A stretch of DNA of 64,000 nucleotides, taken from positions 32,031 through 96,030 of the IMG/VR virus record IMGVR_UViG_3300037119_005846, one strand, 5' to 3'. Shown here piece by piece: positions 21,088-50,496 of this stretch (its first letter is position 1; each line of letters opens with the position of its first letter). A program made the position numbers and the translations under genes. The notes under the pieces were generated by a model that worked only from the letters and a program-made list of their open reading frames with translations, was not told the DNA's origin and ran no database searches. The DNA is from a virus.

Positions 21088-21155
21088 CATCACAATGTAT
21101 AATGACATCAGCCAGCCGGCGAACCCGGCTGGCACCAGGACTTCAGACACAGACA
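21075..21155 (+). promoter_or_regulatory. Class I promoter with a 5' hairpin and GACACAGAC leader
   Basis: TGGCAT-17bp-TATAAT (21098), 9-bp stem GCCAGCCGG/CCGGCTGGC at 21111-21133, motif at 21146. Confidence 0.8.
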
Positions 21156-21169
21156 AAGGAACCAACCCA

Positions 21170-28263: not shown

Positions 28264-28801
28264 CTGGGGCGCGGAACTCGACCGCGTCGAACAGGCCACC
28301 AAGCCCATGGCTGAGGGGCCGCACACCTTCCGGATCGTCGACGCGAAGCCCGTGACAGCGAGCACCGGCAACAAGATGATCAAGCTCACGTGCAAGGTCG
28401 AGGGCGGCCCTGACGACGGCAAGCTCGGCTACAACAACATCGTGTTCACGTTCGACAACCCGCGGGCACTGAAGATGACACTGCGGCGCCTGCGTGCCCT
28501 CGGCATCGACGCTGACTTGCTGCGCGGCGAGAAGCCGTCGATCGAGCAGATCGCCGGCAAGCTGATGGGTCGCAGCGCGGAAGGCAACGTGACGCATCGC
28601 CAGTGGAACGGCGAGACGCAGGACGACATCGACTTCGGCGCGGCCGGCTCTGGCACGCCGGTCATCCCGGCGGCGCCCGTCGTCGGTGGCCCCGCTCCAG
28701 TTGTCGCTCCCGCGCCGACCAAGGAGGCGGCGGCCCCGCCGGCGCCGGTCATCCCGACCGAGCCGACGACGCCGGTCGCGCAGAGCGAGGAATCGTTCTG
28801 A
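28253..28801 (+). CDS. DUF669-like single-stranded DNA-binding protein
   Basis: PMAEG.H.F.I, STGNKMIKL, Pro-rich tail ending in F, next to Sak4. Confidence 0.75.
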   Translation: MTIDWGAELDRVEQATKPMAEGPHTFRIVDAKPVTASTGNKMIKLTCKVEGGPDDGKLGYNNIVFTFDNPRALKMTLRRLRALGIDADLLRGEKPSIEQIAGKLMGRSAEGNVTHRQWNGETQDDIDFGAAGSGTPVIPAAPVVGGPAPVVAPAPTKEAAAPPAPVIPTEPTTPVAQSEESF

Positions 28802-28802
28802 C

Positions 28803-29228
28803 ATGACCGATCGCCTCGACGAGATCTTCGCCCGGCAGCAGCAGCTCCAGCTGGAGTCGTTCCACATCGACGTCACCGCCCTCGAGGGCCTGCCTCGCGA
28901 GAGGTACGTCGTCCAGAACGCGTTCGCTGTCGTCGCGGAGCTCGTCGAGGCGCTCGACAACATCGACTGGAAGATGTGGACGACCGGCAGCCCGGCGCGG
29001 TTTAAGGACCGGGACAGCTTCGTCCGCGAGATGGTCGACGTCCTGCATTTCATGGTGAACCTCCTTCTGATCGCCGACTGCGATGCCACAGAGCTGTATA
29101 GTCGTTATCTCAGGAAGGCCGAAGTCAACGCGCAGCGTCAGCTGGACGGGTACGACGGCGTCAGCACAAAGAAGGATGGGCGAGCGATGGACGAGCCCGA
29201 GTGGCGTCGAGAGGAGGTGGAACCATGA
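28803..29228 (+). CDS. All-alpha dimeric dUTPase/dCTPase
   Basis: F.RQ..LQ, ELVEA....WK.W, EMVDVLHF, Y..K..VN..RQ..GY. Confidence 0.85.
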   Translation: MTDRLDEIFARQQQLQLESFHIDVTALEGLPRERYVVQNAFAVVAELVEALDNIDWKMWTTGSPARFKDRDSFVREMVDVLHFMVNLLLIADCDATELYSRYLRKAEVNAQRQLDGYDGVSTKKDGRAMDEPEWRREEVEP

Positions 29229-29629: not shown

Positions 29630-30619
29630 ATGTCCACCACAGTCAAGTTCGACCCGACGGCGCCTGACGCCGGACGGGCCATTCTGGCGGCGGCCTTGGA
29701 CCGGACCAGCGCGATGCGGGACCTCAGCCGCATCAAGTCGATGCCGTCCACGACGACCGCCTCAACCTCTACACCGGCCGAGCCCGCCAAGATGCGGACC
29801 GTGTTCGACGGCATCGAGGTCAGCTCCAGCTACGTCAGGCCGAACGGCTCGGAGTACAAGCCCCGCGCCATGACGGTCGACGGCGTCGTCGTCCACGACG
29901 TCACCTTCGTCCGGTCGGCCGCCAAGGTCAACAAGCCCGTACTGCTGTACGGCCCGCCAGGAACCGGCAAGACCTCGCTGATCGAGGCCGCCTTCCCCGA
30001 CGTCGTCACCGTCCAGGGCACCATCGAGACCGAGATGACCGACTTCGTCGGCAGCTGGGTCCAGGACAGTGACGGCACGTACCGCTGGATCGACGGCCCC
30101 TTGCTGGTCGCCGCCGATGAGGGCAAGAAACTGCTGATCGACGAGATCGCTCTTATCGACCCGCGGAGCCTGGCCGGCGTCTACGGCGTCATGGACGGTC
30201 GCGACGAAATCGTCGTGACTCAGAACCCGAAGCGTGGCGTTGTCAAGGTGCAGCCCGGGTTCATGGTGCTCGGAGCGTTCAACCCGAACGTCCCCGGCGC
30301 CGTGACATCGGACGCGCTGATGAGTCGCTTCCCGGTTCAGATCGAGGTCGGCACCGACTGGTCACTCGCCTCGGCGCTCAAAGTGCCGGCAAAGATCATC
30401 CAGGTCGTTCGCAACCTCAACCACAAGGCCGAGACCGGAGAGATCACCGCGGCCCCCCAGCTTCGCGAGCTGCTCGGCTTTCGCGACCTCACCGAGGTCT
30501 ACGGCGAGGAGTTCGCCCTCAGGAACTTCATCAGCCAGATCCGTCCGGAGAACCGGGCGGTCGCGCTGGCAGCTATCAAGGCGGTCATGGGCGCAGAGCC
30601 CACCGCACTCACCATCTGA
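29630..30619 (+). CDS. MoxR-family (CbbQ/NorQ/CobS-like) AAA+ ATPase
   Basis: LLYGPPGTGKT, WIDGPL, LLIDEI, AFNP, DALMSRF. Confidence 0.9.
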   Translation: MSTTVKFDPTAPDAGRAILAAALDRTSAMRDLSRIKSMPSTTTASTSTPAEPAKMRTVFDGIEVSSSYVRPNGSEYKPRAMTVDGVVVHDVTFVRSAAKVNKPVLLYGPPGTGKTSLIEAAFPDVVTVQGTIETEMTDFVGSWVQDSDGTYRWIDGPLLVAADEGKKLLIDEIALIDPRSLAGVYGVMDGRDEIVVTQNPKRGVVKVQPGFMVLGAFNPNVPGAVTSDALMSRFPVQIEVGTDWSLASALKVPAKIIQVVRNLNHKAETGEITAAPQLRELLGFRDLTEVYGEEFALRNFISQIRPENRAVALAAIKAVMGAEPTALTI

Positions 30620-30636
30620 CACAGACAGGACACATC

Positions 30637-31284
30637 ATGACCACCACAGCAGCGAGCTTCCTCGGCTCCAACCCCCACGTCGCGCCGTCACCCCATGGCG
30701 TGGACGCCTATGGCCTCTACATCGAGACCGTCGAGGTTAACAGCCTCAACCAGGTCCAGTGGTACAACCGGATCTTCCTGGCCGGCAACGCAATCAGCTT
30801 CTATCACCGAGCAGCTCACGCCTCTCGAACCACGTGGAAACTGTACCGCTACGCTGACACCGCCACCGCCGAGAAGGCGCTGACCAAGTTCACCACGGGC
30901 GGCCGCGGCACGATGCTCCTCCGCGGGGCGCCGATTCTCGTCCAGTTGGACGCGGTCGACGTCACCGCGATTGATGAGATGAAGATGCCGATCGCTCGGT
31001 ATCGCGGCAACAACCGCCACGAGAGCTTGTTCGGCAAGTTCAACCTAGACGACACGCCCCAGATCGCACCGCAAGCGCTCAACGCCAAGGGCTTCGACTC
31101 CGCGAATGCCGCGATCGTCGCGGCCGCAGCCTCGGCCGCAGCCGCCGCCAAGGTGGCGACCGACTTGACGTCAACCATGACCCCACCCTTGCCGACAGTT
31201 GGCGGGATGACGAGTGGCACGACGACGAGTGGCACGACGACTGCCACGATCATCACCACCAGCTCGGGCACCGAGCCGTACTGA
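30637..31284 (+). CDS. Hypothetical protein
   Basis: GACACAGACAGGA leader, 215 aa. Confidence 0.75.
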   Translation: MTTTAASFLGSNPHVAPSPHGVDAYGLYIETVEVNSLNQVQWYNRIFLAGNAISFYHRAAHASRTTWKLYRYADTATAEKALTKFTTGGRGTMLLRGAPILVQLDAVDVTAIDEMKMPIARYRGNNRHESLFGKFNLDDTPQIAPQALNAKGFDSANAAIVAAAASAAAAAKVATDLTSTMTPPLPTVGGMTSGTTTSGTTTATIITTSSGTEPY

Positions 31285-31326
31285 CCGACAGCGCCCGGTC
31301 CGGGAGTCAGACGGGTTCCCGGCCGG

Positions 31327-31355
31327 TGGCCATTGTGTTCACAATGGTGTATAAT
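31327..31355 (+). promoter_or_regulatory. Class I promoter, leaderless
   Basis: TGGCCA-17bp-TATAAT, ATG at +7 (31362). Confidence 0.85.
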
Positions 31356-31361
31356 GAGGAC

Positions 31362-33233
31362 ATGACAGACATGAAGACGACAAGGACGGTGAACCCGCAG
31401 CGTGACGCTCTGCAGGTCGCCCTGAACGCGGAGATCCGGTACTCCCCGCTGCGGGTGCCCAGCGCGGTCGTCCACATCGAGGACGACGAGTCGCAGCCGA
31501 ACCCGCCGGCGGTGGCGTGGTACGAGCCGAAGACCGGGGACATCCACATCCACATCGACCGCGCCAAGATCAACCCCACCGACGCCAACTCGCGCGGCCG
31601 CAAGGACTACGCCGTCACCCGCGGCCTACTGGTCCACGAGGCCTCGCACGCCAAGAACAGCGCCTGGCTGACCACCCTCTGGCACACCGGCATCAAGCCG
31701 TCGGTGATGCGGACTCTGACGATGTTCGAGGAGATGCGGGTCGAGGCACGGGCGGTCAACGCCGACCCGGACGAGTCCCGCATCAACCTCCGGGCGTCGC
31801 TGCCGCTGGCGATGGGTGACATCCGCGACAACCCGCCGGTGACCCGCTACGACGCGGCCAACAGCTGGGGCCTCATCTACGGCCGCTCGCTGACGACGGT
31901 CGTCAGCCACATCGAGCTCCAGTGGCTCGATGACGCGGCTCGCACCATCCTCGGCGACGACGACGTCGATCAGCTCGGCGACATCCTTCAGGAGGCGATC
32001 GGCGCGAGCCACCGCGACGCTGCCCGACTCATCCAGCTCGCCGAGGAGTGGATCGACTTGGTCGGCGCTCCGCCGGAGGGCGAGGGTGGCGGCGGCTGCG
32101 GTCATGGCGAGCCGACCGAGACCGAGCCGGAGGGCGAGAAGATCGAGAAGGGTGAGCCCTCCAAGGATGCCGCGAAGGGTGAAGAGGACGAGGACGACGG
32201 TGACGCCAAGGCGACAGCCGACGGCGCGGCCGCCGAGGACGAGTCCGACGGCAAGCCATCGCGTGGCAAGTTCAACAGCGAGGACGATGATGAGGACGAA
32301 GAGTCCGCGGAATCCGAGAGCGCGCCGATCAGCAAGGACGCCGGCGAGCTGATCAAGGAGATGCTCGACCAGCTCCTCGATGACGTCGAGATCAACTGGT
32401 CGAAGGTCAGGGTCGACATGGCCGACCCGATGGACATGGCCAAGCGCGTGTTCGGCATCCACCGCAGCGACAAGGACATCACGAAGTCGGCACCGACCGC
32501 GGTCCACCACGCCGCAGTTGCCAAGACGGCGAAGGCGCTGGAGGAGCTGGTCGTCCCCGCGATCAGCAAGGTCAGCGTCGCCGCTGAGCTTCCGCCGGGA
32601 CGGCTGCGGACCCGCGAGGCGGTCCGTGCTTCTGCTGAGCGTGCGCAGGGTCGGATGGTGACGGCTCGTCCCTGGGAGGCGACGAAGCGCCGCCACACGA
32701 CCTCACGCCCGATCGTGGTCGGCATCGCCACCGACGTCAGCGGCTCGATGGGATGGGCCGAGCAGATGGTCGCGGACTTCGCCTACACCTGGACCAACGC
32801 CGGTCGCCGGATCGGAGCCCGGACCGCGGCAGTCACGTTCGGTGATACCGCTCAGGCGATCGCCGGTCCCGGTGAGGTCCTGTCCGAGGTCCCGCGCCGC
32901 AGCGCCAACGGTGGCAAGGAGCGGGCCGACCACGCGCTGGCCGCCTTGGACGGGGTGCTCAAGCTGAGCCACAATAACGGCGCCGCCAAGTTGCTCGTCA
33001 TCGTCAGTGATGGTGTCCTCGTGATCTCCAACGAGATGGACCGAGTCCGCCAGCGGCTAGCCGACTTCAAGCTCGGTGGGACGACCGTCATCTGGGTGAC
33101 GCCGGAGCGGTCGTACGTCAAGGGTCTCGTCAAGCTCGGCCTCGTCGAGATCGTTGAGGTCTCGATGGGACGCGGCTCCTTCGACCAGGTCCAGGAGGAG
33201 GTGCTGAAGAAGATCAGCCAGCTCAGCCACTGA
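31362..33233 (+). CDS. CobT-like metallopeptidase-vWA protein (MoxR partner)
   Basis: HEASH..., EEMRVE, acidic linker, MIDAS motif DVSGSM, VIVSDG. Confidence 0.85.
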   Translation: MTDMKTTRTVNPQRDALQVALNAEIRYSPLRVPSAVVHIEDDESQPNPPAVAWYEPKTGDIHIHIDRAKINPTDANSRGRKDYAVTRGLLVHEASHAKNSAWLTTLWHTGIKPSVMRTLTMFEEMRVEARAVNADPDESRINLRASLPLAMGDIRDNPPVTRYDAANSWGLIYGRSLTTVVSHIELQWLDDAARTILGDDDVDQLGDILQEAIGASHRDAARLIQLAEEWIDLVGAPPEGEGGGGCGHGEPTETEPEGEKIEKGEPSKDAAKGEEDEDDGDAKATADGAAAEDESDGKPSRGKFNSEDDDEDEESAESESAPISKDAGELIKEMLDQLLDDVEINWSKVRVDMADPMDMAKRVFGIHRSDKDITKSAPTAVHHAAVAKTAKALEELVVPAISKVSVAAELPPGRLRTREAVRASAERAQGRMVTARPWEATKRRHTTSRPIVVGIATDVSGSMGWAEQMVADFAYTWTNAGRRIGARTAAVTFGDTAQAIAGPGEVLSEVPRRSANGGKERADHALAALDGVLKLSHNNGAAKLLVIVSDGVLVISNEMDRVRQRLADFKLGGTTVIWVTPERSYVKGLVKLGLVEIVEVSMGRGSFDQVQEEVLKKISQLSH

Positions 33234-33284
33234 GCAACCACACAGACCAAGACCCCCTCAGACACAGACAACAAGGAGGATCCC

Positions 33285-33611
33285 ATGTGGATCATCAGCA
33301 AGACCGGCTTTGTGTCGGTCGTCCAGCATCAGCAAGACCCCAGCCTCATGCGAGCGAGGGCTCGCCGACGCGACCATCTCGTCAATACGTTCGGCCTCGG
33401 CGACGAGGAGGTAATCGACCTCGGCCCCGGCGCCAACGACTACCGCTGGCATGCTGACGTCACTCGCGAGCACGTCAAGCTCGCGCTGGCCTCAGCCGTC
33501 AACGACGTCGACTACGACAGCCACGTCAAAGAGGCGGTCACCGGCGGTGACGAGGTGTTCTACACCGCGATGATCAAGAGCTGGGGCGCTCTGCGGAAGC
33601 TGCAGTCATGA
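33285..33611 (+). CDS. Phage hypothetical protein
   Basis: MW...GF.SVV...RAR...DYRW, AAGGAGG RBS. Confidence 0.75.
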   Translation: MWIISKTGFVSVVQHQQDPSLMRARARRRDHLVNTFGLGDEEVIDLGPGANDYRWHADVTREHVKLALASAVNDVDYDSHVKEAVTGGDEVFYTAMIKSWGALRKLQS

Positions 33612-33772
33612 TCGGCGAGGTCGATCACAGCGGCGCCGTTCCACTGCTGGAGTTCTTGGTCGTCGTCGCGTCTGGCCTCCTGATCCTCGACGTCGTGGCG
33701 GAGGTATACCGCTGGAACATCCGTCGGCGTGAAGAGCGTGACCAGGAGAGGCCATGGCGTGGCATCGAGTGA
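33608..33772 (+). CDS. Small membrane protein
   Basis: ATGA overlap, one TM helix. Confidence 0.5.
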   Translation: MIGEVDHSGAVPLLEFLVVVASGLLILDVVAEVYRWNIRRREERDQERPWRGIE

Positions 33773-33990
33773 CTGGTCTGACAGCCGAGGACATGGTCAA
33801 GGCCGCGTCCAAGCGACGCTTCGTCGTCCTCGCTGACGGCCGCCCGGTGGAGCTCGTTCGCTGGCCGGCCACCGGCACGGGCCGCGCCCGCGTCCAGACA
33901 CCGCGGGGCAAGCCGTTCAGCGTCGCCGTCGCAGCGGTAGTCGAGATCGATCTCCCGCCAGGTGGCAATGTCATACAACACGATGTATAA
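33754..33990 (+). CDS. Hypothetical protein
   Basis: 78 aa, start uncertain. Confidence 0.5.
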   Translation: MAWHRVTGLTAEDMVKAASKRRFVVLADGRPVELVRWPATGTGRARVQTPRGKPFSVAVAAVVEIDLPPGGNVIQHDV

Positions 33991-33991
33991 T
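33963..33991 (+). promoter_or_regulatory. Class I promoter, leaderless
   Basis: TGGCAA-17bp-TATAAT, ATG at +7 (33998). Confidence 0.85.
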
Positions 33992-33997
33992 GACGCC

Positions 33998-34612
33998 ATG
34001 ACAGAGACACAGACCACCACGCCGGCGGCGGCGAACCCTCTGACCGCCGCGCAGGCCGACTTCATCGGCGGCCTCCTCGACGAGCGCGAGGGCTTCACCC
34101 CCGGATTCGAAGTTCGAGTCCGCGAGGGCATCGCCACCTGGGCGATCGACAAGACCAAGGCGAGCGAGATCATCGGCTGGCTGCTCGAGCGCCCAAAGAG
34201 GGCGAAGGCGACCGGCCCCACCTACACCGCGATCCTCGCCGATGACAAGCTCGACATCCCCGCCGGCCACTACGCCGCGACCGTTCCCGGCTCGCACGAG
34301 CCGCTCTCGTTCTTCCGGGTCGACCGGCCGACCGAGGGCAAGTGGGCGGGCGCGACGTTTGTCAAGCACATCGTCGGTGGACACCCGGACTACCCCGTCA
34401 AGGGCGCGGCTGCGCAGGAGGCGTTGAAGGCGATCAACGACGCCGGCATCGTCGCCAGCGCCGTCAGGTACGCCGCTGAGTTCCGTCGCTGCCTTCACTG
34501 TAACTTGCAACTGACCGACCCGATCAGCCGCGCGATCGGTATCGGCCCTCACTGCCGCAAGGCTTACGCCGGCACCGCACTGATCGCCGCCGTCCTGGCG
34601 GTCGGTCGGTGA
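33998..34612 (+). CDS. DUF6011-domain protein
   Basis: C..C...LTDP.SRA.GIGP.C. Confidence 0.8.
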   Translation: MTETQTTTPAAANPLTAAQADFIGGLLDEREGFTPGFEVRVREGIATWAIDKTKASEIIGWLLERPKRAKATGPTYTAILADDKLDIPAGHYAATVPGSHEPLSFFRVDRPTEGKWAGATFVKHIVGGHPDYPVKGAAAQEALKAINDAGIVASAVRYAAEFRRCLHCNLQLTDPISRAIGIGPHCRKAYAGTALIAAVLAVGR

Positions 34613-35493: not shown

Positions 35494-36564
35494 ATGAAGA
35501 TACTCTGCACTGCGTTCAACAGCGCGGCGCTGACCGAGGCGACGCACCGGTGGCATATTCGTAATGCCGTCGGCGCCTACGTCGCCGCGCTGAGAGACCT
35601 CGGGCACGACGTCGACTGGCGACGCTCGACGATGGATGACGCCGATCTCGTGCAGACACGCCGTGATCAGTACGACGTCATTATCGCTAACGTCGTTCCG
35701 CCGCTCAGTCTCGTCGCGATCGACTGGATTCCAGTCGTCAGACTGATGAACGCGGCGACCGAGCGTGGCATCCCCGTGATCATGTCCATCGACGACTGGA
35801 ATACAGACAACGTGACCCGCCGCGTCGAGCGCAACGGCGAGAATCCGAGTCTCGTTCTCGGCAAGGACTTCCACGCGAAGCGCGCCGGCTACGAGTGGGC
35901 GATGGCCGATCACGACCGGTACGTCAGGATGTGCTTCGACTTCGCCGCGACCAAGTTCCCGACGCTCGTCTGCGCCTACGAGTTCGGTACTGCCGAGGGC
36001 TTCGCAAGGCTCGCGAGCCGGCTGCCGGGACGAGTGTACCAGTTGGACCCGACGCCGTACGTTCACCACAACTACTACCCGCAGATGCCCGCGAAGCGTG
36101 ACCGCGTGTGGGTCATGTCATCGCTCGCGTGTCATAACAAGTGGCTATCTGAGCACGAGTGGAAGTGGCCGGGCGAGTATTACCTGACGGTTGGAGAGAA
36201 ATGGCCGCCGCCACCCGGCTGGGAGATCCATCCGCCGATCAAGCAGCACGACATTATCGAGCGCTACGGCCAGGTCTGGGGCGTGCTCCTTCAGCCGTAC
36301 AAGAGAATGCTCAGCTCGGGCTGGTGGCGTGACCGGTGGGTGACTGCGACGAGATCAGGCACGGTACTGTATGTCGATCCGGCCGACGCCGGCCGATTGA
36401 CTGACCACAACTTCAGACGTGAGATTGGTGACATCGAGAACATGTCGACAGAGGACCTAGCGCGGCTGGCGAATCGTCAGCGTGAGGAGATCGAAGACTG
36501 GCTCTGGACTAAGGAGCGACTCCAGCGCGAGCTGTCACTCGTGCTCGAGCTGGAGTGCCGATGA
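35494..36564 (+). CDS. Putative GT-B glycosyltransferase (DNA beta-glucosyltransferase-like)
   Basis: MKIL, ALRDLGHDVD, YDVII, IDDW, Y...WGVL..PY, GWWR.R. Size and N-terminal pattern resemble T4 BGT. Confidence 0.55.
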   Translation: MKILCTAFNSAALTEATHRWHIRNAVGAYVAALRDLGHDVDWRRSTMDDADLVQTRRDQYDVIIANVVPPLSLVAIDWIPVVRLMNAATERGIPVIMSIDDWNTDNVTRRVERNGENPSLVLGKDFHAKRAGYEWAMADHDRYVRMCFDFAATKFPTLVCAYEFGTAEGFARLASRLPGRVYQLDPTPYVHHNYYPQMPAKRDRVWVMSSLACHNKWLSEHEWKWPGEYYLTVGEKWPPPPGWEIHPPIKQHDIIERYGQVWGVLLQPYKRMLSSGWWRDRWVTATRSGTVLYVDPADAGRLTDHNFRREIGDIENMSTEDLARLANRQREEIEDWLWTKERLQRELSLVLELECR

Positions 36565-36950
36565 CCGATCCGACGCCACCGTGGGAGTACGACGAAGTTG
36601 ATCGTGGCTACGAGACGGCATGTTGGATCGTTCGCGCGAAGAACAAGACTGGGATTCATCCTCGTGCTGGACTCACGAACTGGTTCTCGCGATTCCTTCT
36701 TCGTGGTGAGAAGGGTGTCTTCCAGCATCTCTGTGAGCAGTGGGGTGAGGTCAATTGCTGCGCTCGCTTGTCCCACATCGTGGTTGGCACGCAGTCATCG
36801 AATGCTAAGCACTGGCATCAGCTTCGTCGCGAAGCCGGTGTTGGCTTCTATCACATGCGCGGGCAGCGAAGAGTTCTCAAGACACGTCAATGCGAGGTCT
36901 GTAAAAGAGTCATTAGCCTCGTCAACTTTGAAAGGCACAAGTGTAAGTAA
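36561..36950 (+). CDS. HNH-like homing endonuclease (divergent)
   Basis: CWI, HLC....CC...SH...GT.S.N, lower GC than its neighbours. Confidence 0.6.
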   Translation: MTDPTPPWEYDEVDRGYETACWIVRAKNKTGIHPRAGLTNWFSRFLLRGEKGVFQHLCEQWGEVNCCARLSHIVVGTQSSNAKHWHQLRREAGVGFYHMRGQRRVLKTRQCEVCKRVISLVNFERHKCK

Positions 36951-38317
36951 TGACTTTCTCGGTCGTGGATGTCAACGGGCTCAATGGAAGTCTCAGCTGG
37001 GGAATGAACCAAGCTGGTGGTCGTCTGTTGTACCGAACGGGATACCTCGATCTCGGTCGAGCGATTGTCAGAGCGAACGCGCCACTGTGGGGCAATGATT
37101 GGCACGACTACATCGAACCGGGTGTCAAGGACTGGGAGGCGTGGTACCTAGGTGACCAGATGGCTGATGTCGTCGTAGCAGTCCCACCATGTAGTGGATT
37201 CTCCTTGCTAACTGGCAAGGGCTTGTCGCGCGGGACTGGGAACGCAGTTAACGCTGGTGCAGCTCATCCAATGAACTCGTGCATGTGGGAGTCTGCACGC
37301 TACGCCGCTCGTCACGCGCCGCAAGTGTACGTCTTCGAGTCGGTCACGGGCGCGTACCGTCGCGGCCATGACGTCATGCTCGGTCTCAGATCCGAGATCG
37401 AGCGGATCACCGGCAGGCACTACACGCTCACGCACTGGCTCCACGACTGCGCCGTGCTTGGATCGCCGACGTCTCGTCAGCGGTACATGTTCGTTGCCGT
37501 CCAGGGCGACACGCCGTTCTGCGTGACGCCGGTCGAAGAGTACGCGGTGAAGGAGCTGACTACGACGCGTGACGCGATCGGCGACCTCAGCAGCATGGAC
37601 ACAGGCGTTGGCTTGCGCCCCATCCCGTATCCGACGCTCGCCGGCGTGTTTGGTCGTCGTCTTCATCGCAAAGACAAGATGGTCGACGGTCACTACAACA
37701 ACACCGACCTTCGTCGTGATCGCGGGCTGGCGCCGCCGAAGTGGCATCACCAGGTCGATCAGATCGCCAAGACGCTGCAGGCTCACGGTAGCAATTGGCG
37801 TCAGGGCCAGAGCGAGCCGGACGCGCTGCGATGTCTCTACCAGGCGGCTGGCCTCGACCCGCTGGTCGCGATCGAGGGCGAGAAGCGCGCCGGCAAGTTT
37901 GTGCAGAACGACTTCAACCTCGGTGCGTACTTCGCGTGTCGTCTGATCTGGGACGCGCCGTGCGGCGTCATCTCCGGCTCCGGCGGCGACAGCTTTGTGC
38001 ACCCGGAGCATGACCGCCTGCTGACACACCGCGAGTGCGCCCGAATCCAGGGCTGGCCGGACGAGCTCGTGATCGAGTTCGACTCGAAGAAGTTCGGCAA
38101 GGAGCACCTCGGCGCGGTCTGGGGCAAGGCTGTGACACCGGTCGTGGCACGTCATGCTGCGCAGGAGATCGCAGCATGGCTCGAGCAGCCGGCCATGATC
38201 GGCAAGAACGCGGGCACGCTGATCGGTGATCGCGAGTACTTGATCGATGACCTCGAGCCGTCGCGCTTTCTGCGACGGATGTCGTCAGACCTGCGACGCA
38301 GGACTCTCGCTGCCTGA
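36950..38317 (+). CDS. Divergent DNA (cytosine-C5)-methyltransferase-like protein
   Basis: PPCSGFS (IV), FESV (VI), R.RYMFVA (VIII), RLLT.RECARIQGWP (IX), GKAV (X). Motif I is degenerate. Confidence 0.8.
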   Translation: MTFSVVDVNGLNGSLSWGMNQAGGRLLYRTGYLDLGRAIVRANAPLWGNDWHDYIEPGVKDWEAWYLGDQMADVVVAVPPCSGFSLLTGKGLSRGTGNAVNAGAAHPMNSCMWESARYAARHAPQVYVFESVTGAYRRGHDVMLGLRSEIERITGRHYTLTHWLHDCAVLGSPTSRQRYMFVAVQGDTPFCVTPVEEYAVKELTTTRDAIGDLSSMDTGVGLRPIPYPTLAGVFGRRLHRKDKMVDGHYNNTDLRRDRGLAPPKWHHQVDQIAKTLQAHGSNWRQGQSEPDALRCLYQAAGLDPLVAIEGEKRAGKFVQNDFNLGAYFACRLIWDAPCGVISGSGGDSFVHPEHDRLLTHRECARIQGWPDELVIEFDSKKFGKEHLGAVWGKAVTPVVARHAAQEIAAWLEQPAMIGKNAGTLIGDREYLIDDLEPSRFLRRMSSDLRRRTLAA

Positions 38318-39050: not shown

Positions 39051-42000
39051 ATGGCTGCCGAGGCTATCGGCACGGCATTTATTGTCATCAGAGCAGTCAC
39101 GACTCGTCTCGCCAAGGACATCCAGGACGGCATCGAGAAGGGCGCCAAGGACGCTGACGTCGAGAGCTCCGGTCGCGACATGGGCGACCGGATGGGCACG
39201 GCCGGCGGTGAGTCGTTCGGGGACTCGTTCGACGAGACGTCATCCAAGAGAGTAGAAGAATCCGCTGACTCTCCTGAGATGAAGAAGTCTCAGAAGAAGT
39301 TCAGCGACAGGTTCTTCGGCCGCTGGGGCGCGCACTTCAGTCAGGGCGCTGATGATGTAAGTGACACGTTCCGTGAGCGACTCAGTGTTGGTATGGAGCG
39401 GTCGGCCACGGACATCGACGTCGATCGCGCTGCCGGCACGTTCGGTAGTGACCTCGGCGACGAGGTGGGCAACGACTTTGACGCGTCGTTCTCCCGCAAC
39501 ATGCAGCACAACTTCAAGAACCGGTCGAACGATGACACGTTCGGCACGGGCTTCAGTGGGTTCGCGCAACGTGCTGGCAAGAGCTTGGCCGACGGCGTGG
39601 GCACCACGTTCCTCGACAGCTTCGTTGGCTTTGGTGACACGGTCGCCGGCGCACTGAACAGCATCAAGATTCCGGGCGGCTCGATTGCCATTCTGGCTCA
39701 GCTCGCGATTCCTGCTCTTGGCGGGGCACTGCAGTCGATCGGTGCGCTCGCTGGCTCGGCCACGGCCGCGCTTGGCTTCCTCGGCACGGCGGCGGCAGGA
39801 GCAGGCATTGGGTTCCTTGGCCTGGGAGCGGCGATCGCGCCAGCGTTCCTTCTGATCAAGGGAGCGTTCGGCGTTGAGTCGGACGAGCTCGACGCGTTCA
39901 ACGGGCAGCTTGATGACTTCAAGGAGAAGTGGGAGTCAGTAGGCCTAGCAACGCAGGAGACTCTGCTTCCAGCGCTGTCAGCGTCACTCGAGATGTTCGA
40001 GGCGCTCATCCCGACCTTTGAAAGCTATGGCTCGGTGATCGGCCAGGTCGTCGGCGACATCGCCTTCGGCGCCGCAGGTATTCTGACGAGCACAGAGAGT
40101 CAGCTGAAGCTCAGCAGTATCCTCGCCAATGGTTCGCAAGTCATACGGACACTTGGTGACGCCGGGGTCGACTTGATCGCGCCAGTGCTGACGATCCTCG
40201 AGGCGGCGATGCCGATCGCTCAGCAGCTCGCGGATGCGATTCACCGCGTCGTTCAGAGCTTCGCCGAGTGGATCGACATGAAGTCGAAGTCGGGCGAGCT
40301 TACGGCTTTGTTCCAGAAGTGGTACGACCGCTTCAAGCTGATCATGTCGATCCTCGGCAACCTCGGCAGCGCGCTGGCTGATGTCTTCGGAATCGGCGCT
40401 GACTCTGCCGACGGCATGTTCAAGACTCTTGATGCAATCACCGAGAAGTGGGCTGAGTGGACGAACTCCGACGAGGGTCAAGCGAAGCTGACGACCTTCT
40501 TCGAGAACGCGAGAAAGATCTCGGGTGAGATCTTCGGAATTATTGGCGACATCGGCAAGCGCTTGTTTGGTGGGATGTTTGACCCAAAGGGCACGGATGG
40601 TCTTTTGGGCTTCTTCAAGACCATCCGCGAGGTATGGATTCCCGCACTGTTCGATTTCGGCGGCATGATCAAAGACCAGCTCGGTCCAGTTGTCGGTCAG
40701 GTCTTTGGCGTCATCACTGATCTGGTCAAGACTCTCACGGAAAACCCCGAGCTCGCAGGCGGCATTATAGGAGTCCTCGCCTCGAATTTCGTCTTGCTCG
40801 TCGCTGCGCTCAAGGGTCTCAACGCCGTGCTTAACACGGAGTTCGTCAAGAAGTGGGGCCCTCTGATCCTGAAGATCCTCCTGTTCGCGAAGATCGGCGC
40901 GACGCTCTGGCCTATCGTCAAGAAGATCATTAAGGTGTTCCAGGGCCTCGAAGCGGTTCTGGGTGCGATCTTCTCGCCGATCGGCCTGGTCGTCGCCGCG
41001 GTTGCTGCGCTCATCGCCGGCATCGTTCTTCTGTACTTCCACTTCCAGCCGTTCAGAGACTTCGTCGACCGCAACATCATCGACCCACTGCAGCGACTAT
41101 GGGACAGAATCGGTGGGTTCAGAGGGATCATTGACTTCTTCAAGGAGTTGCGTGAAGCCTTCAAGACAGGTGGGTTCGGTGGGGCGGTAGACTTCCTCAG
41201 CGAGCAGCTAGGAAATCTGCTCGATGACATCAAGGAGTTCTTCGCCGGCCTTCACATCGACTGGGGTGGGGTCTGGGACACTCTCTTCGAGGGCGCTGGA
41301 GACATCGGTGAGCAGCTCAGTGAGTGGCTGCAGACTGGTATTGACTGGCTCTCCAAGAACTTCCCCAAGATCGCCAGGACGATTGGGAAGATCGCCGGCA
41401 AGGTGCTTCTCGCTATCGTGGGGGTACTCACCCTGATCGTGCGAGCGATCGGGCCAGCGATGCTGACACTTCTCAAGAGTCTGCCGAGGATTCTCCAGAC
41501 TTTGGTCGAGGGAGCATTCCAGTTCCTGATTGGGATCCTGGAGGGTCTGGGTCTTCCCGAGGGAATTGTCAACTTCTTCGAGGGAGCCTTCGGCTTCATC
41601 ACCGATGCGTTCCAGATCATCACGGACTACGTCACTCGTCACATCGAGCGTGGCATCCGGATCGTCACAGACATCATCGGCTTCTTCAAGGCACTCTTCA
41701 GCGGCAACTTCGGCGAAGCCTTCGGCAAGATCGTCGACATTGTCAAGACAGTCATCGAAGATGTCATTGACCAGCTCTTGACGTTCGGCAAATTGATCTG
41801 GTTCGCACTCAAGAACAGTTTCAGCATACTGAAGGATGTGGGCTCACTCCTGCTGGGTTTCGGGCATGATCTCATCAACGGGCTGTGGCAAGGCATCCAG
41901 CGCATCTGGGACTCCACTATCCTGCCATTCTTTAAGAATCTTCCCGGCAACATTCTTAGCGCGATAGTGAGCGTCGGAAACTGGCTCCTGGAGACTGGCA

Positions 42001-44297
42001 AGACCATCCTCAACACGCTCTGGCTCGGCATCCAGATCGTCTGGCCGATCATCACCGACTTCTTCAAGAATCTGCCGGGAAACATTGTCGATCTCGTAGT
42101 CAGCGTCGGCGGATGGCTGCTTGAGACCGGCAAGACCATCCTCAATACGCTCTGGCTGGGAATTCAGATCATCTGGCCGATCATCACAGGCTTCTTCAAG
42201 GACCTTCCCGGAAACATTGTTGACCTGGTCGTGGACGCCGGTGGATGGCTGCTCGAGACCGGTAAGACGATTCTCAACACGCTATGGCTCGGGCTCCAGC
42301 TCATCTGGCCGACGATCAGAGACTTCTTCACGAATCTTCCTGGCGCGATTCTTGGACTCGTAGTCGATGTCGGAGGATGGCTGCTCAACACGGGCAAGAA
42401 CATTCTCAACACGCTGTGGCTTGGAATCCAGGCGATCTGGCCGACCATCACAAACTTCTTCACGGGTCTTCCCGGAGCGATCTTCAGTCTCATCTCCGCG
42501 GCCGCAGGTCTGTACGTAGACGCACTCATCGGCATCGGTTCGAACTTCATCAACTTGATCTGGTTCGGCGTTCAGATGATCTGGCCGACAATCCGAGACT
42601 TCTTCACTGGCCTGCCCGGCAAGATCTTGGATGCCCTGGGGCAGGTCGCGGACTTTAGCGGTGACTTGCTCTCATGGGGCGCTGACTTGATCAGCACGAT
42701 CATCCGCGGCATCACTGACTGGATTCGAGACAACGTTCCAGGCGCTGGATGGCTTCTTGATCTCATGGGCATCGGCGACCTCATGTCTGAGGAGGATAAG
42801 CAGTCAGAGGCTATTCGGTCGACATGGGAGCATGTCGCTGCGGGCTACGTTCTCGCCGGTCAGCAGGCGATGGCAGGCGCGCGCCAGGATCTCGTCGACC
42901 AGGCTGGCGAGGGCAGCGACACGGTAATGAATGCGTTCATCCTGGGTCTTCAGGATGCTGGCACGCAGGCGAACTTTGGGGGCATCGTCCCTTCGACGAT
43001 GATCAACGACATCGTCGGTCAGCTGGGTGACATCGGTGGCCCCGCCGCCGACGCACTGACACTGGAGATCGAAGAGGCACTGAAGGGAGGACTCACCGAC
43101 GCCGAATTCACTGACATCATCACCTCGGCGGAGAAGATCCTTACTGACGCAGGGACGACCGCTGCACATGGGTTTGGGGCTGGACTTTCCAATCCTGACG
43201 CTATCAAGGCTCTGACGCCAGCAATGGAGGCGATGGTCGATACTGCATGGGTGCAGACGCTTGATGGCAGTAGCTTCAAGAAGACTAGCAAGAACACCGC
43301 GACTACCGTCTCTAAGGGGTTAGCCGGCGAGATCACCAAGACCAAGCCGAGTACTTTCCAAAGCTCGGCTGATGCGATGATGACGAACTTGTCAACCGGG
43401 CTGAAGAAGGCTCAAATTTTGCTCAAGGCGTTCGCCGTAGGCCTGATACTCACGATTGTCTCGTGGATCAACCCGACGGTCAAGCTGATGCAGACACTTG
43501 GTCTGAGCATGATGAACGGCTTGCTCCAGGGACTACTCCTGGGCCTGGTCATTGTCCTCGTCGCGGTGAGGACGATCCCGACGAAGATCGTCGCAGCGAT
43601 TGGCAGTGTCGCGACGACACTGCTCGCGTCCGGTCTCAGTCTCATGCGCGGCTTCCTCGCCGGCGTCAACCTCGGCGCGGCTATCGTCGTCAGCGCGCTC
43701 AATGGCATGAGGGCGCGGTTCGTCTCGGCGGTCGGCAATCTGAGCGGCGCGCTCACGAGTGCCGGCTTGGGACTTATGAGCGGCCTGATCTCTGGTGTCC
43801 GCACCGGGATCATCGCGCTTGTCATTCTTCTCGGCAGTCTGCGTCAGACCGTTCTCAACATGTTCGCGGGCTGGGGCAAACTGCTCTATCCAACCGGTGT
43901 GAGCCTCATTCAGGGTCTGATCGCCGGCATCCGGTCGCAGTTCTGGGCGCTGCAACAAGCGGCGAACGAGGCGAGAAGGATCGCTACGATCCCGGCGGTC
44001 ACTGGCGGTCAGCAATTCGCACTAGGTGGCATCGTCACCGGGCCGGTATTTGCGACGATCGGCGAGGCCGGTGCCGAGGCGGTGATCCCGCTGACCAGGC
44101 CACTGCGTGCGCTGTCCTTGCTGCACGCATCGGGTCTCGATGAGCTCGTTCGCCAGGGCTCGCCGACCGGCGGTGACGTCACACTGCTCAACATCGAGCA
44201 CGCCGAGATCAACGACAAGGTAGACGTCGACATGGTCGCGGCTAGACTGACTAGTGCTTATCGCGCAATGATCACAGCTAACGGAGCAGTAGCATGA
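39051..44297 (+). CDS. Tape measure protein
   Basis: 1748 aa, amphipathic helical repeats, C-terminal FALGGIV.GP....GEAG.EAVIPL. Confidence 0.95.
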   Translation: MAAEAIGTAFIVIRAVTTRLAKDIQDGIEKGAKDADVESSGRDMGDRMGTAGGESFGDSFDETSSKRVEESADSPEMKKSQKKFSDRFFGRWGAHFSQGADDVSDTFRERLSVGMERSATDIDVDRAAGTFGSDLGDEVGNDFDASFSRNMQHNFKNRSNDDTFGTGFSGFAQRAGKSLADGVGTTFLDSFVGFGDTVAGALNSIKIPGGSIAILAQLAIPALGGALQSIGALAGSATAALGFLGTAAAGAGIGFLGLGAAIAPAFLLIKGAFGVESDELDAFNGQLDDFKEKWESVGLATQETLLPALSASLEMFEALIPTFESYGSVIGQVVGDIAFGAAGILTSTESQLKLSSILANGSQVIRTLGDAGVDLIAPVLTILEAAMPIAQQLADAIHRVVQSFAEWIDMKSKSGELTALFQKWYDRFKLIMSILGNLGSALADVFGIGADSADGMFKTLDAITEKWAEWTNSDEGQAKLTTFFENARKISGEIFGIIGDIGKRLFGGMFDPKGTDGLLGFFKTIREVWIPALFDFGGMIKDQLGPVVGQVFGVITDLVKTLTENPELAGGIIGVLASNFVLLVAALKGLNAVLNTEFVKKWGPLILKILLFAKIGATLWPIVKKIIKVFQGLEAVLGAIFSPIGLVVAAVAALIAGIVLLYFHFQPFRDFVDRNIIDPLQRLWDRIGGFRGIIDFFKELREAFKTGGFGGAVDFLSEQLGNLLDDIKEFFAGLHIDWGGVWDTLFEGAGDIGEQLSEWLQTGIDWLSKNFPKIARTIGKIAGKVLLAIVGVLTLIVRAIGPAMLTLLKSLPRILQTLVEGAFQFLIGILEGLGLPEGIVNFFEGAFGFITDAFQIITDYVTRHIERGIRIVTDIIGFFKALFSGNFGEAFGKIVDIVKTVIEDVIDQLLTFGKLIWFALKNSFSILKDVGSLLLGFGHDLINGLWQGIQRIWDSTILPFFKNLPGNILSAIVSVGNWLLETGKTILNTLWLGIQIVWPIITDFFKNLPGNIVDLVVSVGGWLLETGKTILNTLWLGIQIIWPIITGFFKDLPGNIVDLVVDAGGWLLETGKTILNTLWLGLQLIWPTIRDFFTNLPGAILGLVVDVGGWLLNTGKNILNTLWLGIQAIWPTITNFFTGLPGAIFSLISAAAGLYVDALIGIGSNFINLIWFGVQMIWPTIRDFFTGLPGKILDALGQVADFSGDLLSWGADLISTIIRGITDWIRDNVPGAGWLLDLMGIGDLMSEEDKQSEAIRSTWEHVAAGYVLAGQQAMAGARQDLVDQAGEGSDTVMNAFILGLQDAGTQANFGGIVPSTMINDIVGQLGDIGGPAADALTLEIEEALKGGLTDAEFTDIITSAEKILTDAGTTAAHGFGAGLSNPDAIKALTPAMEAMVDTAWVQTLDGSSFKKTSKNTATTVSKGLAGEITKTKPSTFQSSADAMMTNLSTGLKKAQILLKAFAVGLILTIVSWINPTVKLMQTLGLSMMNGLLQGLLLGLVIVLVAVRTIPTKIVAAIGSVATTLLASGLSLMRGFLAGVNLGAAIVVSALNGMRARFVSAVGNLSGALTSAGLGLMSGLISGVRTGIIALVILLGSLRQTVLNMFAGWGKLLYPTGVSLIQGLIAGIRSQFWALQQAANEARRIATIPAVTGGQQFALGGIVTGPVFATIGEAGAEAVIPLTRPLRALSLLHASGLDELVRQGSPTGGDVTLLNIEHAEINDKVDVDMVAARLTSAYRAMITANGAVA
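41860..42700 (+). repeat. 132-bp (44-aa) tandem repeats inside the tape measure gene
   Basis: FFxxLPG units start at 41928, 42060, 42192, 42324, 42456 and 42600. Confidence 0.9.
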
Positions 44298-46815: not shown

Positions 46816-46843
46816 TTTCAAGTGTTGAGGTAGTATCCGCGCC

Positions 46844-48262: not shown

Positions 48263-49129
48263 ATGTGGATCATTCTCGAGGGAGTGGACGGCAGTGGCAA
48301 ATCTACACTCTGCGACATCATTGCCGAGTCGATCCCCGACATCCCTGACGTCATACGCACGCACCTGGGTGCGCCCAAGTCTGCCGCCAGCGCACTGATC
48401 GAGTGCACTGACGACGAGCCGTTCGGCACGTACCGACCTGGCGGCGGTGCTCACATCATCAGCGACCGTCACCACTGGGGCTGCCCGGTGTACGGACCTG
48501 TCCTGCGGCCGGAGCGTGACACGGACGGCTACGGCGACTTCAACAAGGCCGGCTGGCGATACTGTGAGCTGTTCATCGCGTCCCGGGGTGGTCGGACGAT
48601 CTACGTCGACGTCAGCGCCGAGACCGCGCAGGAGCGCATACGGCATCGAGGCGACGCGAACTACGACGTTGAGACGCTGATCGCCATCACGCCGGAGCTG
48701 CTCGACCGCTACCACTGGTTGCTGACCGAGGCGCCGACGCTGGGGCTCCACATCGTCGAGCCGAGCATGGCTGAGCTGACGGTCCTTGCGCGCGACATCA
48801 TCGAGCTCGGCTCGATCCACGAGGACGAGGCCGCGCCGCTGGCGCACTACCCGGACTACATCGGTAAGCCGCAGCCCAAGAAGCTGCTCGTCTGTGAGCC
48901 GACCAAGGATGCGCGGCTAGACATTCTTGCTAGCTTCAGTGACGATGAGTGGGCCGATGTCGGCTTTTGCTCGAGCGCGCACACGCGTGACTCGCTGCAC
49001 GAGCTAGCGTCGACGCTGGATTACCCGCAGATCGTCGGTGTTGGTCGTCTGCCGAGCGACGCGGACGCATTTGTGTTCGACATGGCTGGTAGGGTTGAGT
49101 CAGCCCGCGACGGCGCAGTGGCTATCTGA
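48263..49129 (+). CDS. Thymidylate-kinase-like dNMP kinase with a C-terminal extension
   Basis: IILEGVDGSGKST, DRHH, R.RGD. Confidence 0.85.
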   Translation: MWIILEGVDGSGKSTLCDIIAESIPDIPDVIRTHLGAPKSAASALIECTDDEPFGTYRPGGGAHIISDRHHWGCPVYGPVLRPERDTDGYGDFNKAGWRYCELFIASRGGRTIYVDVSAETAQERIRHRGDANYDVETLIAITPELLDRYHWLLTEAPTLGLHIVEPSMAELTVLARDIIELGSIHEDEAAPLAHYPDYIGKPQPKKLLVCEPTKDARLDILASFSDDEWADVGFCSSAHTRDSLHELASTLDYPQIVGVGRLPSDADAFVFDMAGRVESARDGAVAI

Positions 49130-49147
49130 CACAGACAGGAGACATAG

Positions 49148-50041
49148 ATGCATCACCGCAAGGTGAAGGATCTTCGACGCGAGTACGCGGACATCGTGTA
49201 CGAGGTGCTCACGCTCGGCGACAAGACCGCTCCGCGTGGCATTCCGACGCACGAGATCCTCAACTACGTGATGACGTTCGACGACGCGCGCAACTGCACG
49301 TTCCCGTCCGGCATCGGCCGGCTGGTCAGCCCGCGAGTACTGGCTGCCGAGGGGATGCAGTGGCTTGGCGGGGTCAGCGACCTGGCGCAGCTGGAGTCGG
49401 TCAGCGCCAAGTTCCTCGAGTACTCGGACGACGGCACGCGGCTGTACGGCGCCTACGGGCCGCGATCACACAAGGGTCTCTGGCGCGCGATCAGGCTTCT
49501 GTACAATGACCCGGACACTCGTCAGGCCGTCGTGTCAATCTGGAGCCATGACGAGCTCCATTCGACGCGTGACCTCCCGTGCACAGTCAGCTGGTCGTTC
49601 ATCATCCGCCGCGGTCGGCTGCACATGACGACGTTCATGCGCTCGAATGACGTCTGGACCGGCCTCGCGTACGACGTCCCGATCATGGCACGCATCCAGA
49701 CGGCGATGGCATGGGCGCTTGGCGTCGACGTCGGCTCGTACACGCATCACGCTCAGTCGATGCACATCTACGAGAGTGACCTCGCCGGGCTGGACTCGCT
49801 GCAGTCGGTGATCCTGGAAGTCGATGAGCCGCCATTCTTCGACGACATCGGCAATGTGCACCATCTGCCGTCGCAGCGCTGGAAGTACGTTGTTGAGTGG
49901 GCCATCGACGCCGCTCAGGGCGCGTCGCATCTGCCGCCGGCGTTCGACTGGTACTCACGTCAACTTGCGGCGACCGAGCACCACCCGTACTTCTGCGACC
50001 GCTGCCGGTACTACACACCTGCCGTCTGCGAGTGCGAGTGA
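49148..50041 (+). CDS. Thymidylate-synthase-family enzyme, Asp-type (dCMP-modifying)
   Basis: YGPR, TRQAV, DLPC(145)T, MRSND...G..YD(176), SMHIYE. Confidence 0.85.
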   Translation: MHHRKVKDLRREYADIVYEVLTLGDKTAPRGIPTHEILNYVMTFDDARNCTFPSGIGRLVSPRVLAAEGMQWLGGVSDLAQLESVSAKFLEYSDDGTRLYGAYGPRSHKGLWRAIRLLYNDPDTRQAVVSIWSHDELHSTRDLPCTVSWSFIIRRGRLHMTTFMRSNDVWTGLAYDVPIMARIQTAMAWALGVDVGSYTHHAQSMHIYESDLAGLDSLQSVILEVDEPPFFDDIGNVHHLPSQRWKYVVEWAIDAAQGASHLPPAFDWYSRQLAATEHHPYFCDRCRYYTPAVCECE

Positions 50042-50496
50042 GGCCGACGTGGGACGCGACGTGGATGGCGATGGCCGACAGCGTCGGGCAACGAAGCCTC
50101 TGCAGCCGCGCTAAGATCGGTTGTGTCATCGTCACTCGCGACAATCGCGTCGAGTCGGCGACATATAACGGCCCCGCACCGGCGTTCGATCACCACGAGC
50201 TCGAGTGCGACCACTGGTGCGAGCGGATGATGACCGGCGAGAAGGGCGTCAACTATGACACATGCCCGTCGACGCATGCGGAAGCTTCCGCGATCGCGCG
50301 AAGCGACTGGTCTCGACTTCAAGGCGCGACGTTGTACGTCAACGGATCATGCTGCCAGAATTGTTCGAAGCTGATCGCTCAGACAGGCATCAAGCGAGTA
50401 GTGCATCGCGTCACCGAGAGCATGGCGTATCGCCATCCCGAGCTGGTCGAGCAGTACTTGCGGAGCATGCTCATCGAGGTGAGACGTGCCACTTGA
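50038..50496 (+). CDS. dCMP deaminase
   Basis: RPTWD, RS.C, YNG.., HAE, C..C.K.I.Q.GI, GTGA-coupled to the TS homologue. Confidence 0.9.
   Translation: MRPTWDATWMAMADSVGQRSLCSRAKIGCVIVTRDNRVESATYNGPAPAFDHHELECDHWCERMMTGEKGVNYDTCPSTHAEASAIARSDWSRLQGATLYVNGSCCQNCSKLIAQTGIKRVVHRVTESMAYRHPELVEQYLRSMLIEVRRAT

Follow-up and report, generated by a model that had tools for sequence, protein, structure and literature searches.

A phage cytosine-C5 methyltransferase-like enzyme with a rebuilt cofactor pocket may act without SAM beside a putative hydroxymethylcytosine glycosyltransferase

Introduction

What would a phage do with a cytosine-C5 methyltransferase (C5-MTase) whose pocket for the methyl donor appears to have been rebuilt? 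The question is raised by a 64,000-nucleotide stretch of DNA from an uncultured virus (the window; positions 32,031 to 96,030 of IMG/VR record IMGVR_UViG_3300037119_005846, which is 96,030 bp long, about 95% complete and has a G+C content of about 64%), in which the gene for a C5-MTase-like enzyme, P0001, lies shortly downstream of the gene for a glycosyltransferase (GT), P0002. An original prediction, made from the letters of the sequence, proposed that P0001 is a repurposed enzyme that makes or edits a non-methyl cytosine together with the GT. Here we follow up this idea by comparing the two proteins, and the genes around them, with their relatives. As judged from these alignments, P0001 is a member of a phage-only family in which the residues that contact the adenosine of S-adenosylmethionine (SAM) are conservedly replaced and the residues that attack cytosine are invariant. 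On balance we lean towards the view that the enzyme is not an ordinary writer of 5-methylcytosine (5mC) and that it belongs to a pathway for glycosylating 5-hydroxymethylcytosine (hmC). Within that view, the most likely role of P0001 is a SAM-independent action on DNA, directed at C5 of cytosine or hmC and taken alongside the GT.

Results

P0001 and P0002 lie in a translationally coupled locus

Three genes follow one another on the same strand:

35494..36564, + strand: P0002, a GT-B glycosyltransferase of 356 amino acids, nearest in predicted structure to T4 beta-glucosyltransferase (BGT), with a family-conserved D100-D101-W102
36561..36950, + strand: a small Cys-rich ORFan of 129 amino acids from the ATG at 36561, or 131 from a GTG at 36555, which overlaps both neighbours
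36950..38317, + strand: P0001, a C5-cytosine-methyltransferase-like enzyme of 455 amino acids, with the core intact and the cofactor pocket rebuilt (N9-G10-L11, R29-T30-G31, S82, S131 and K393)

P0002 is preceded by a GGGAGA that resembles a ribosome-binding site, and its stop codon overlaps the ATG of the small open reading frame (ORF) at 36561 (ATGA); the stop codon of the latter in turn overlaps the ATG of P0001 at 36950 (TAATG). These overlapping stop and start codons indicate that the three genes are translationally coupled, and bear out the earlier claim that the methylase-like gene is tied to the GT through an inserted gene. The record's own gene call for the enzyme, P0005, is a truncated version of 344 amino acids that starts at an internal Met, misses window positions 36950-37282 and is devoid of motif I and the catalytic PPC. 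The 455-residue frame is favoured because full-length homologues measure 440-460 amino acids and have conserved N-termini. A nucleotide search of the phage collection gave no match.

P0001 retains the fold and catalytic core of C5-MTases

Pfam family PF00145 matches P0001 with an E-value of 1.6e-17, over profile positions 62-322 only, and the NCBIfam dcm model (TIGR00675) matches from position 61 only, below its cut-off. Since the PF00145 match begins at profile position 62, motif I of P0001 goes unrecognised by the model. The AF2 prediction, built from an alignment of 64 homologues, has a predicted local distance difference test score (pLDDT) of 94.8, and Foldseek matched it to DNMT1, M.HaeIII and 3G7U (E-values of 1e-19 to 1e-14); the Cp-933R prophage methylase and CmoX are among the matches. 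Pfam, AF2 and Foldseek thus agree on a class I methyltransferase fold with a target-recognition domain, as in PF00145 enzymes. The translation also contains the motifs that the original prediction had read by eye: VVDVNGLNGS (I), VPPCSGFS (IV), FESVTG (VI), TSRQRYMF (VIII), RECARIQGWPD (IX) and WGKAV (X).

To define which positions are conserved, we gathered relatives from 69 protein clusters and from viral contigs; 375 of the latter encode a relative, and the best 80 of them, together with two annotated phage loci, make up a set of 82 loci. The catalytic PPC81, E130 and R176/R178 are all present in P0001, and P80-C81, E130 and R176/R178 are invariant across the 64 proteins and the 82 loci. 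The full list of positions without variation over the viral loci comprises P79, P80, C81, E130, V132, R176, R178, R361 and E362. With Cys81, Glu130 and Arg176/178 in place, the enzyme should still be able to flip a cytosine and attack its C6.

The cofactor pocket is rebuilt across a virus-only family

The part of the protein that would hold the cofactor is quite different. Motif I, FxGxGG in canonical enzymes, reads N9-G10-L11-N12-G13-S14 in a loop about two residues shorter, and the ribose-binding acid of motif II is replaced, Gly31 aligning with Glu47 of CmoX. The three residues that face C5 or the transfer site differ too: the Gln, Asn and Asn of canonical enzymes are replaced in P0001 by S82, S131 and K393, so that neither the Gly-Asn of motif X nor the Gln after the catalytic Cys is found: all 82 loci read G392-K393 and C81-S82. 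In M.HhaI numbering the family-wide changes are Q82 to S, N120 to S or C, and N304 to K; K393 and S82 occur in 82/82 loci and position 131 is Cys or Ser in every one. The changes around motifs I and II are nearly as constant (N9 and L11 in 77/82, R29 and G31 in 77/82, T30 in 76/82). Such invariance at odd positions over 82 viral loci argues that the deviations are not due to chance.

The nearest cellular relatives, by contrast, are canonical at the same places, with Q82 in 48 of 49, N131 in 52 of 52 and N393 in 63 of 73. A search of 185,579 cellular species genomes found no close member of the P0001 family, the best match being only 28% identical. In the collections searched, the family is therefore confined to viruses, and the comparison indicates that its pocket changes are derived and under selection.

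The structure of SpCmoX, the carboxy-SAM-dependent enzyme of a Synechococcus phage, shows what these positions do: F25, E47, F48 and D69 contact the adenosine, and R350, at the place of M.HhaI N304, holds the transferred group (PMC12783734). In a HMMER alignment to 8YF3, these five residues fall on N9, G31, Y32, D53 and K393 of P0001. In the family as a whole Thr predominates at position 32, and 68/82 loci have Ala or Ser at position 53. All four adenosine contacts thus appear to be lost in most members, and two of the four in P0001.

P0002 is most similar in predicted structure to T4 beta-glucosyltransferase

Neither Pfam nor NCBIfam has a family that matches P0002. The protein is part of a large family without a name (394 representative clusters), which a search with a 20-sequence alignment found on 292 viral contigs. 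Its predicted structure (pLDDT 95.7) is a GT-B fold for which T4 BGT is the top structural match, three Z units over the rest and covering the whole protein, and the two folds superpose over the full length of P0002. A D-D-W motif follows the strand at residues 95-99, with D101 invariant and D100 at least 90% conserved, and would match the place of the catalytic Asp100 of T4 BGT. At the level of sequence the similarity is marginal (hhalign probability 26%, E-value 7e-4, 48 columns in register), and PF09198 (GT63), the family of the T4 enzyme, has no match anywhere in the genome. The link to T4 BGT is therefore one of predicted structure, by which P0002 is most like this glucosyltransferase of hmC in DNA.

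The methylase-like gene and the glycosyltransferase travel together

The original prediction could be checked by asking whether the two genes co-occur across phages, and they do: they are neighbours in most of the relatives' loci. A BGT-like gene is found in 34/42 methylase-centred metagenomic loci with more than 4 kb upstream, usually 2.6 kb upstream and on the same strand. Conversely, among the 30 BGT-centred loci that have over 5 kb of flank on each side, 27 contain a methylase-like gene and 27 a thymidylate synthase (TS) homologue. Among cultured phages matched by both P0001 and P0002, we found only Actinomycetia phage DSL-LC01 and the Gordonia phages GodonK, Phendrix, GMA2, Sixama, Forza, Boopy, BlueNGold and Mareelih; two GodonK records were missed for the GT by the P0002 collection search, and the gene was located by tblastn at positions 15289-16098 of locus L002. 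In Micrococcus phage Kurnik the methylase-like gene lies behind two GTs and a MazG gene.

The neighbourhood is kept in three different orders. The first, exemplified by locus L068, runs BGT-like, unknown, dUTPase_2, DUF6378 and methylase-like gene, the last being of the K type with NGL and RTG. In the second, the BGT-like gene is followed by dUTPase_2 and a K-type methylase-like gene that keeps the motif I Phe and the motif II Glu. The third is a compact cassette (L200) made of a methylase-like gene with Arg at the N304 position, a MazG-like gene, a BGT-like gene, a kinase, a TS homologue with the diagnostic Asp, a dCMP deaminase, PolA and a UDP-glucose dehydrogenase. In addition, three metagenomic proteins (P0180, P0190 and P0194) are natural fusions of an N-terminal C5-MTase-like and a C-terminal BGT-like domain; their methylase-like parts have NPPCA, ESV and Arg at the N304 position, and one of the three carries a uracil-DNA glycosylase (UDG)-superfamily domain in between. 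Neighbourhood in different orders, together with fusion, points to a functional coupling beyond shared descent.

Other partners were seen on BGT-like domains as well: in P0085, P0126, P0114 and P0194 they are fused to class I SAM methyltransferase domains (Methyltransf_23), to dUTPase_2 or to a UDG-superfamily domain that is accompanied by a C5-MTase-like one. A family-less protein of about 330-350 amino acids is conserved between the GT and the methylase-like gene in freshwater relatives, DSL-LC01 and GodonK (L068 7480-8526; L001 11441-12430; L002 14087-15097), and L068 (8985-9404) and DSL-LC01 alone share a protein of 139 amino acids there; neither protein has a homologue in the window. Enzymes of sugar-nucleotide metabolism also accompany the cassette in relatives, namely a UDP-glucose dehydrogenase in L200 (14699-15970) and a UDP-galactopyranose mutase in DSL-LC01 (L001 10324-11421), and their variety suggests that different lineages place different sugars on hmC. 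A separate GT1-family glycosyltransferase adjoins the large terminase gene in the structural region of the genome, outside the window (G000 25098-26201; L004 7098-8201), and is a better candidate than P0002 for glycosylating the virion.

The small ORF between P0002 and P0001 has no counterpart in the 82 related loci. It had been taken for an HNH gene, a label that we could not confirm: for this gene of 129-131 codons neither Pfam, HNH families included, nor PHROG gave a match, even at E<=1, and what is left is a loose resemblance by eye to C..NCC..H..GT...N.

The genome encodes a T4-like set of genes, probably for glycosylated hydroxymethylcytosine

Four further genes of the window bear on the substrate of the two enzymes:

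28686..29228, + strand: a candidate dCTPase of the dUTPase_2 or all-alpha NTP pyrophosphatase type, found between the GT and methylase-like genes in relatives
48263..49129, + strand: a deoxynucleoside monophosphate (thymidylate-type) kinase-like P-loop protein, candidate 5-hydroxymethyl-dCMP (5hm-dCMP) kinase, directly upstream of the TS homologue
49148..50041, + strand: a TS homologue of the dCMP hydroxymethylase type, with Asp at the positions of ThyA L143 and N177 and D169 kept
50041..50496, + strand: a dCMP deaminase-like zinc deaminase, directly downstream of the TS homologue; its start codon is uncertain, the frame being open from 49897

The best match of the TS homologue in the PDB is the CMP hydroxymethylase MilA (E-value 3.7e-18), and its sequence reads RDLPC ... 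RSND ... AYD, with the catalytic Cys, Asp at both the L143 and N177 positions and D169 retained. According to a 2026 paper in Nucleic Acids Research, this signature marks 5hm-dCMP synthases, as opposed to thymidylate synthases and to D169N 5-hydroxy-dCMP synthases (PMC13326640). In the alignment used here, the dUMP hydroxymethylase SPO1 gp29 shows Asn at the N177 position. The hydroxymethylase signature was present in every TS homologue checked, which came from seven related genomes and loci. The genome is thus predicted to make 5hm-dCMP before replication, and the TS homologue, kinase, deaminase and dCTPase-like gene, together with the BGT-like GT, would correspond to the set with which T4 makes its glycosyl-hmC DNA. 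The methylase-like gene was never seen without a dCMP hydroxymethylase (7/7 genomes checked). One apparent case to the contrary (G005, locus L088) was set aside as irrelevant, as it carries a canonical FAGGGG/ENV/GNAV methylase and no BGT-like gene. The original prediction had found no TET/JBP dioxygenase in the window, and none is encoded in the whole 96-kb genome either.

The cassette is split on this genome. Between the GT and methylase-like genes on one side and the kinase, TS, deaminase and PolA genes on the other lies a region (39051-47701) with a gene of 1748 codons that has no Pfam match, followed by tail genes that include an SPP1 Dit-like one (44294-45583); we take the former for the tape-measure gene, given its length and its position ahead of the tail genes. 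As structural genes intervene, the nucleotide and replication module is divided in two. The dUTPase_2 and BGT-like genes are likewise set apart, by a block at 29630-34612 with an AAA_5 ATPase (29630-30619), a protein of 635 amino acids (31326-33233; a weak VWA match, E-value 0.0017, below the Pfam cut-off), small ORFs and a DUF6011 protein (33962-34612), which appears to have been inserted when compared with freshwater relatives such as L068. Further away, a Ku70/80-like protein (21065-21979; PF02735, E-value 3.9e-19) is encoded upstream of recombination genes.

Discussion

Alternative functions of the two enzymes

The simplest alternative is that P0001 is an ordinary SAM-dependent 5mC writer with a divergent motif I and slightly altered SAM binding, acting on unreplaced cytosines or on host DNA. 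The matches to PF00145 and TIGR00675, the C5-MTase fold and the retention of all catalytic motifs would fit such an enzyme, as would the Y32 and D53 kept by P0001 and the motif I Phe and motif II Glu kept by more distant K-type members. It is harder to reconcile with a glycine loop that is shortened and a motif II acid that is lost in 77/82 loci, with Ala or Ser at position 53 in 68/82, and with the invariant Lys and Ser in place of Asn304 and Gln82 and the Cys or Ser in place of the ENV Asn, three positions that the cellular relatives keep. The gene moreover sits inside hmC cassettes and is fused to BGT-like GTs, and where 5hm-dCMP is made before replication C5 is already occupied, which leaves little for an ordinary 5mC writer to do. 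We regard this reading as unlikely, though still one to reckon with. Less likely again is that the enzyme is a CmoX-like alkyltransferase, which would use carboxy-SAM or another anionic SAM-derived donor, hold its carboxylate with Lys393 and produce 5-carboxymethylcytosine or a related base. This proposal draws on the Arg350 with which SpCmoX binds the carboxylate of carboxy-SAM at the M.HhaI Asn304 position, on the Lys that engineered M.MpeI N374K and M.MedI N377K use there, on the Arg of the fused relatives, and on 8YF3 being the second-best PDB sequence match and having, like P0001, Ser after PPC. Against it, CmoA (TIGR00740) gave no match either here or in five genomes of related phages, of which two reach a CheckV completeness of at least 90% and two were deposited as complete, and it scored over the cut-off in none of 81 sampled genomes from the family of Williamsia muralis, which we take to contain Gordonia. 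There is no AMP-forming ligase in the genome, the adenosine contacts appear lost, two of the four in P0001 and all four in most relatives, and cytosine is expected to be replaced by hmC. With neither CmoA nor a ligase, and with adenosine contacts apparently lost, we consider the carboxy-SAM reading very improbable.

P0001 might instead edit hmC: Cys81 would attack its C6, the hydroxyl would leave with the help of Lys393, and a cellular nucleophile, for example an amine, an amino acid or a thiol like mycothiol, would add to the exocyclic methylene to give 5-(X-methyl)cytosine. There is in vitro precedent for C5-MTases joining thiols to 5hmC in the absence of SAM (PMC7176277), the gene always accompanies a dCMP hydroxymethylase, the smaller residue at position 82 leaves room for a 5-substituent and a basic residue stands at the transfer site. 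The minimal locus, however, contains no conserved partner that would supply the nucleophile, and an enzyme of this kind would compete with the GT for the same hydroxyl, a poor fit to the natural fusions between the two; we hold it to be rather improbable. About as doubtful, or slightly more so, is the idea that the GT has a non-DNA acceptor in virion or cell-wall glycans and that it stays next to the methylase-like gene through synteny by descent alone. Virion proteins are indeed glycosylated by actinophages, P0002 falls in no Pfam family and does not match T4 BGT significantly in sequence (hhalign probability 26%), and extra GTs and a UDP-galactopyranose mutase accompany the gene in relatives. 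Yet T4 BGT leads the structural matches by its three Z units with full coverage, the GT family is fused to C5-MTase-like, UDG and dUTPase_2 domains, in another, unrelated arrangement the gene sits among those for a dCTPase-like enzyme, a kinase and a hydroxymethylase, and a separate GT1 gene adjoins the terminase in the structural region.

A SAM-independent cytosine-C5 enzyme

With the 5mC-writer and CmoX-like readings disfavoured, what remains is C5 chemistry that does not use SAM, and for this there is laboratory precedent. As the original prediction noted, C5-MTases can add aldehydes to cytosine or condense thiols with hmC in the absence of SAM: M.HhaI converts cytosine to 5hmC with formaldehyde, and an engineered M.SssI couples thiols to 5hmC (PMC7176277). 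We therefore tentatively propose, as an idea whose odds we put somewhat below even, that P0001 is a natural SAM-independent DNA cytosine-C5 enzyme derived from a C5-MTase, working with the BGT-like GT either as a TET-free post-replicative writer of hmC (from an aldehyde or folate one-carbon unit) or as a swapper of the hmC hydroxyl. The writer direction is the one we favour, because it needs no further gene, explains both the loss of SAM binding (5mC being a dead end) and a cation at the transfer site that would stabilise an alkoxide, and fits sequential action in a fusion with the GT.

In outline, a T4-like pre-replicative pathway (dCMP hydroxymethylase, kinase, dCTPase-like enzyme, dCMP deaminase and BGT-like GT) would build hmC DNA, and P0001 would add a one-carbon aldehyde equivalent, formaldehyde or methylene-tetrahydrofolate, to the cytosines that escaped replacement. 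Lys393 would stabilise or protonate the forming alkoxide, the resulting hmC would be glycosylated by the adjacent or fused GT, and the loss of SAM binding would avoid dead-end 5mC. This patching of leftover cytosines is a possible mechanism, on the unlikely side.

Several observations pull the other way. Three GT loci with ample flanks have no methylase-like gene, which suggests that the enzyme is accessory, and its constant company of a hydroxymethylase may mean that it needs hmC as a substrate; patching also seems redundant with a pre-replicative hydroxymethylase. Of the four adenosine contacts, Y32 and D53 are still present in P0001 itself, so it may bind SAM in an altered mode, and the loss of SAM binding is a conclusion we draw from alignment, just as we infer the hmC in the phage DNA from the gene set. 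Finally, annotations and one paper label a homologue, that of DSL-LC01, as an ordinary DNA methyltransferase. Of the original prediction, the central idea of a repurposed enzyme that makes or edits a non-methyl cytosine with the GT has gained from the conserved rebuilt pocket, from the linkage to the GT (overlapping genes, three gene orders and fusions), from the BGT-like nature of P0002 and from a genome predicted to make hmC; its HNH label found no support.

Implications

If P0001 is indeed free of SAM, it would be the first natural case of a chemistry so far seen as a laboratory side reaction of C5-methyltransferases. It would offer a new, TET-free way of enzymatically writing or editing 5hmC in DNA, a matter of interest for epigenome-mapping tools, and would add a step to the T4 paradigm of hmC glycosylation. 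On the same reading, hmC-type DNA would also occur in phages of Actinomycetota, cultured Gordonia and Micrococcus phages among them. DNA of this type affects restriction, CRISPR targeting and the sequencing of such phages.

Comparison with known systems

P0001 shares with M.HhaI, M.HaeIII and DNMT1 (PF00145) the fold, the PPC Cys, the motif VI Glu, the Arg-x-Arg of motif VIII and motif IX. It differs from these canonical C5-MTases in the short motif I, in the replaced motif II acid and motif VI Asn, in the family-wide changes of Gln82 to Ser and Asn304 to Lys, and in its occurrence in viruses only and in hmC cassettes. The change of the motif X Asn has been made on purpose in M.MpeI N374K and M.MedI N377K, which use carboxy-SAM; in P0001 it is natural. 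The engineered eM.HhaI and eM.SssI are reportedly altered at two places as well, the Gln that follows the catalytic Cys and the motif X Asn. The SAM-free reactions of C5-MTases are laboratory side reactions or belong to engineered variants, and they show that the scaffold can add aldehydes to cytosine and substitute the hydroxyl of hmC; we know of no natural enzyme with such an activity.

The closest characterised phage enzyme in several respects is SpCmoX of Synechococcus phage S-B43 (PDB 8YF3), which likewise has a C5-MTase fold, a basic residue at the Asn304 position (Arg350 against Lys393) and Ser after the PPC Cys, and which makes a non-methyl C5 handle for further hypermodification (PMC12783734). 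CmoX differs from P0001 in keeping the FxGxGG of canonical enzymes, the Glu of motif II, the Asp of motif III and an ENV where P0001 reads ESV. It also depends on a phage CmoA, usually together with an amide ligase, whereas the phage studied here has neither, the partners of P0001 being hmC genes and a BGT-like GT.

Those partners recall the hmC system of T4, with its gp42 dCMP hydroxymethylase, gp1 kinase, gp56 dCTPase, Cd deaminase and beta-glucosyltransferase. T4, however, has no C5-MTase-like gene, and the host group here is Actinomycetota; P0002 has no detectable sequence similarity to the GT63 enzyme of T4, and a UDP-galactopyranose mutase or a UDP-glucose dehydrogenase joins the set in relatives. 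The phage TET pathway also pairs a DNA C5 enzyme with a GT (C5-MTase, TET/JBP and GT), where glycosylated hmC arises after replication (PMC8256090). The present phage differs in having no TET/JBP enzyme, in making hmC, as its genes predict, at the level of the nucleotide, and in a C5 enzyme without the SAM motifs for 5mC.

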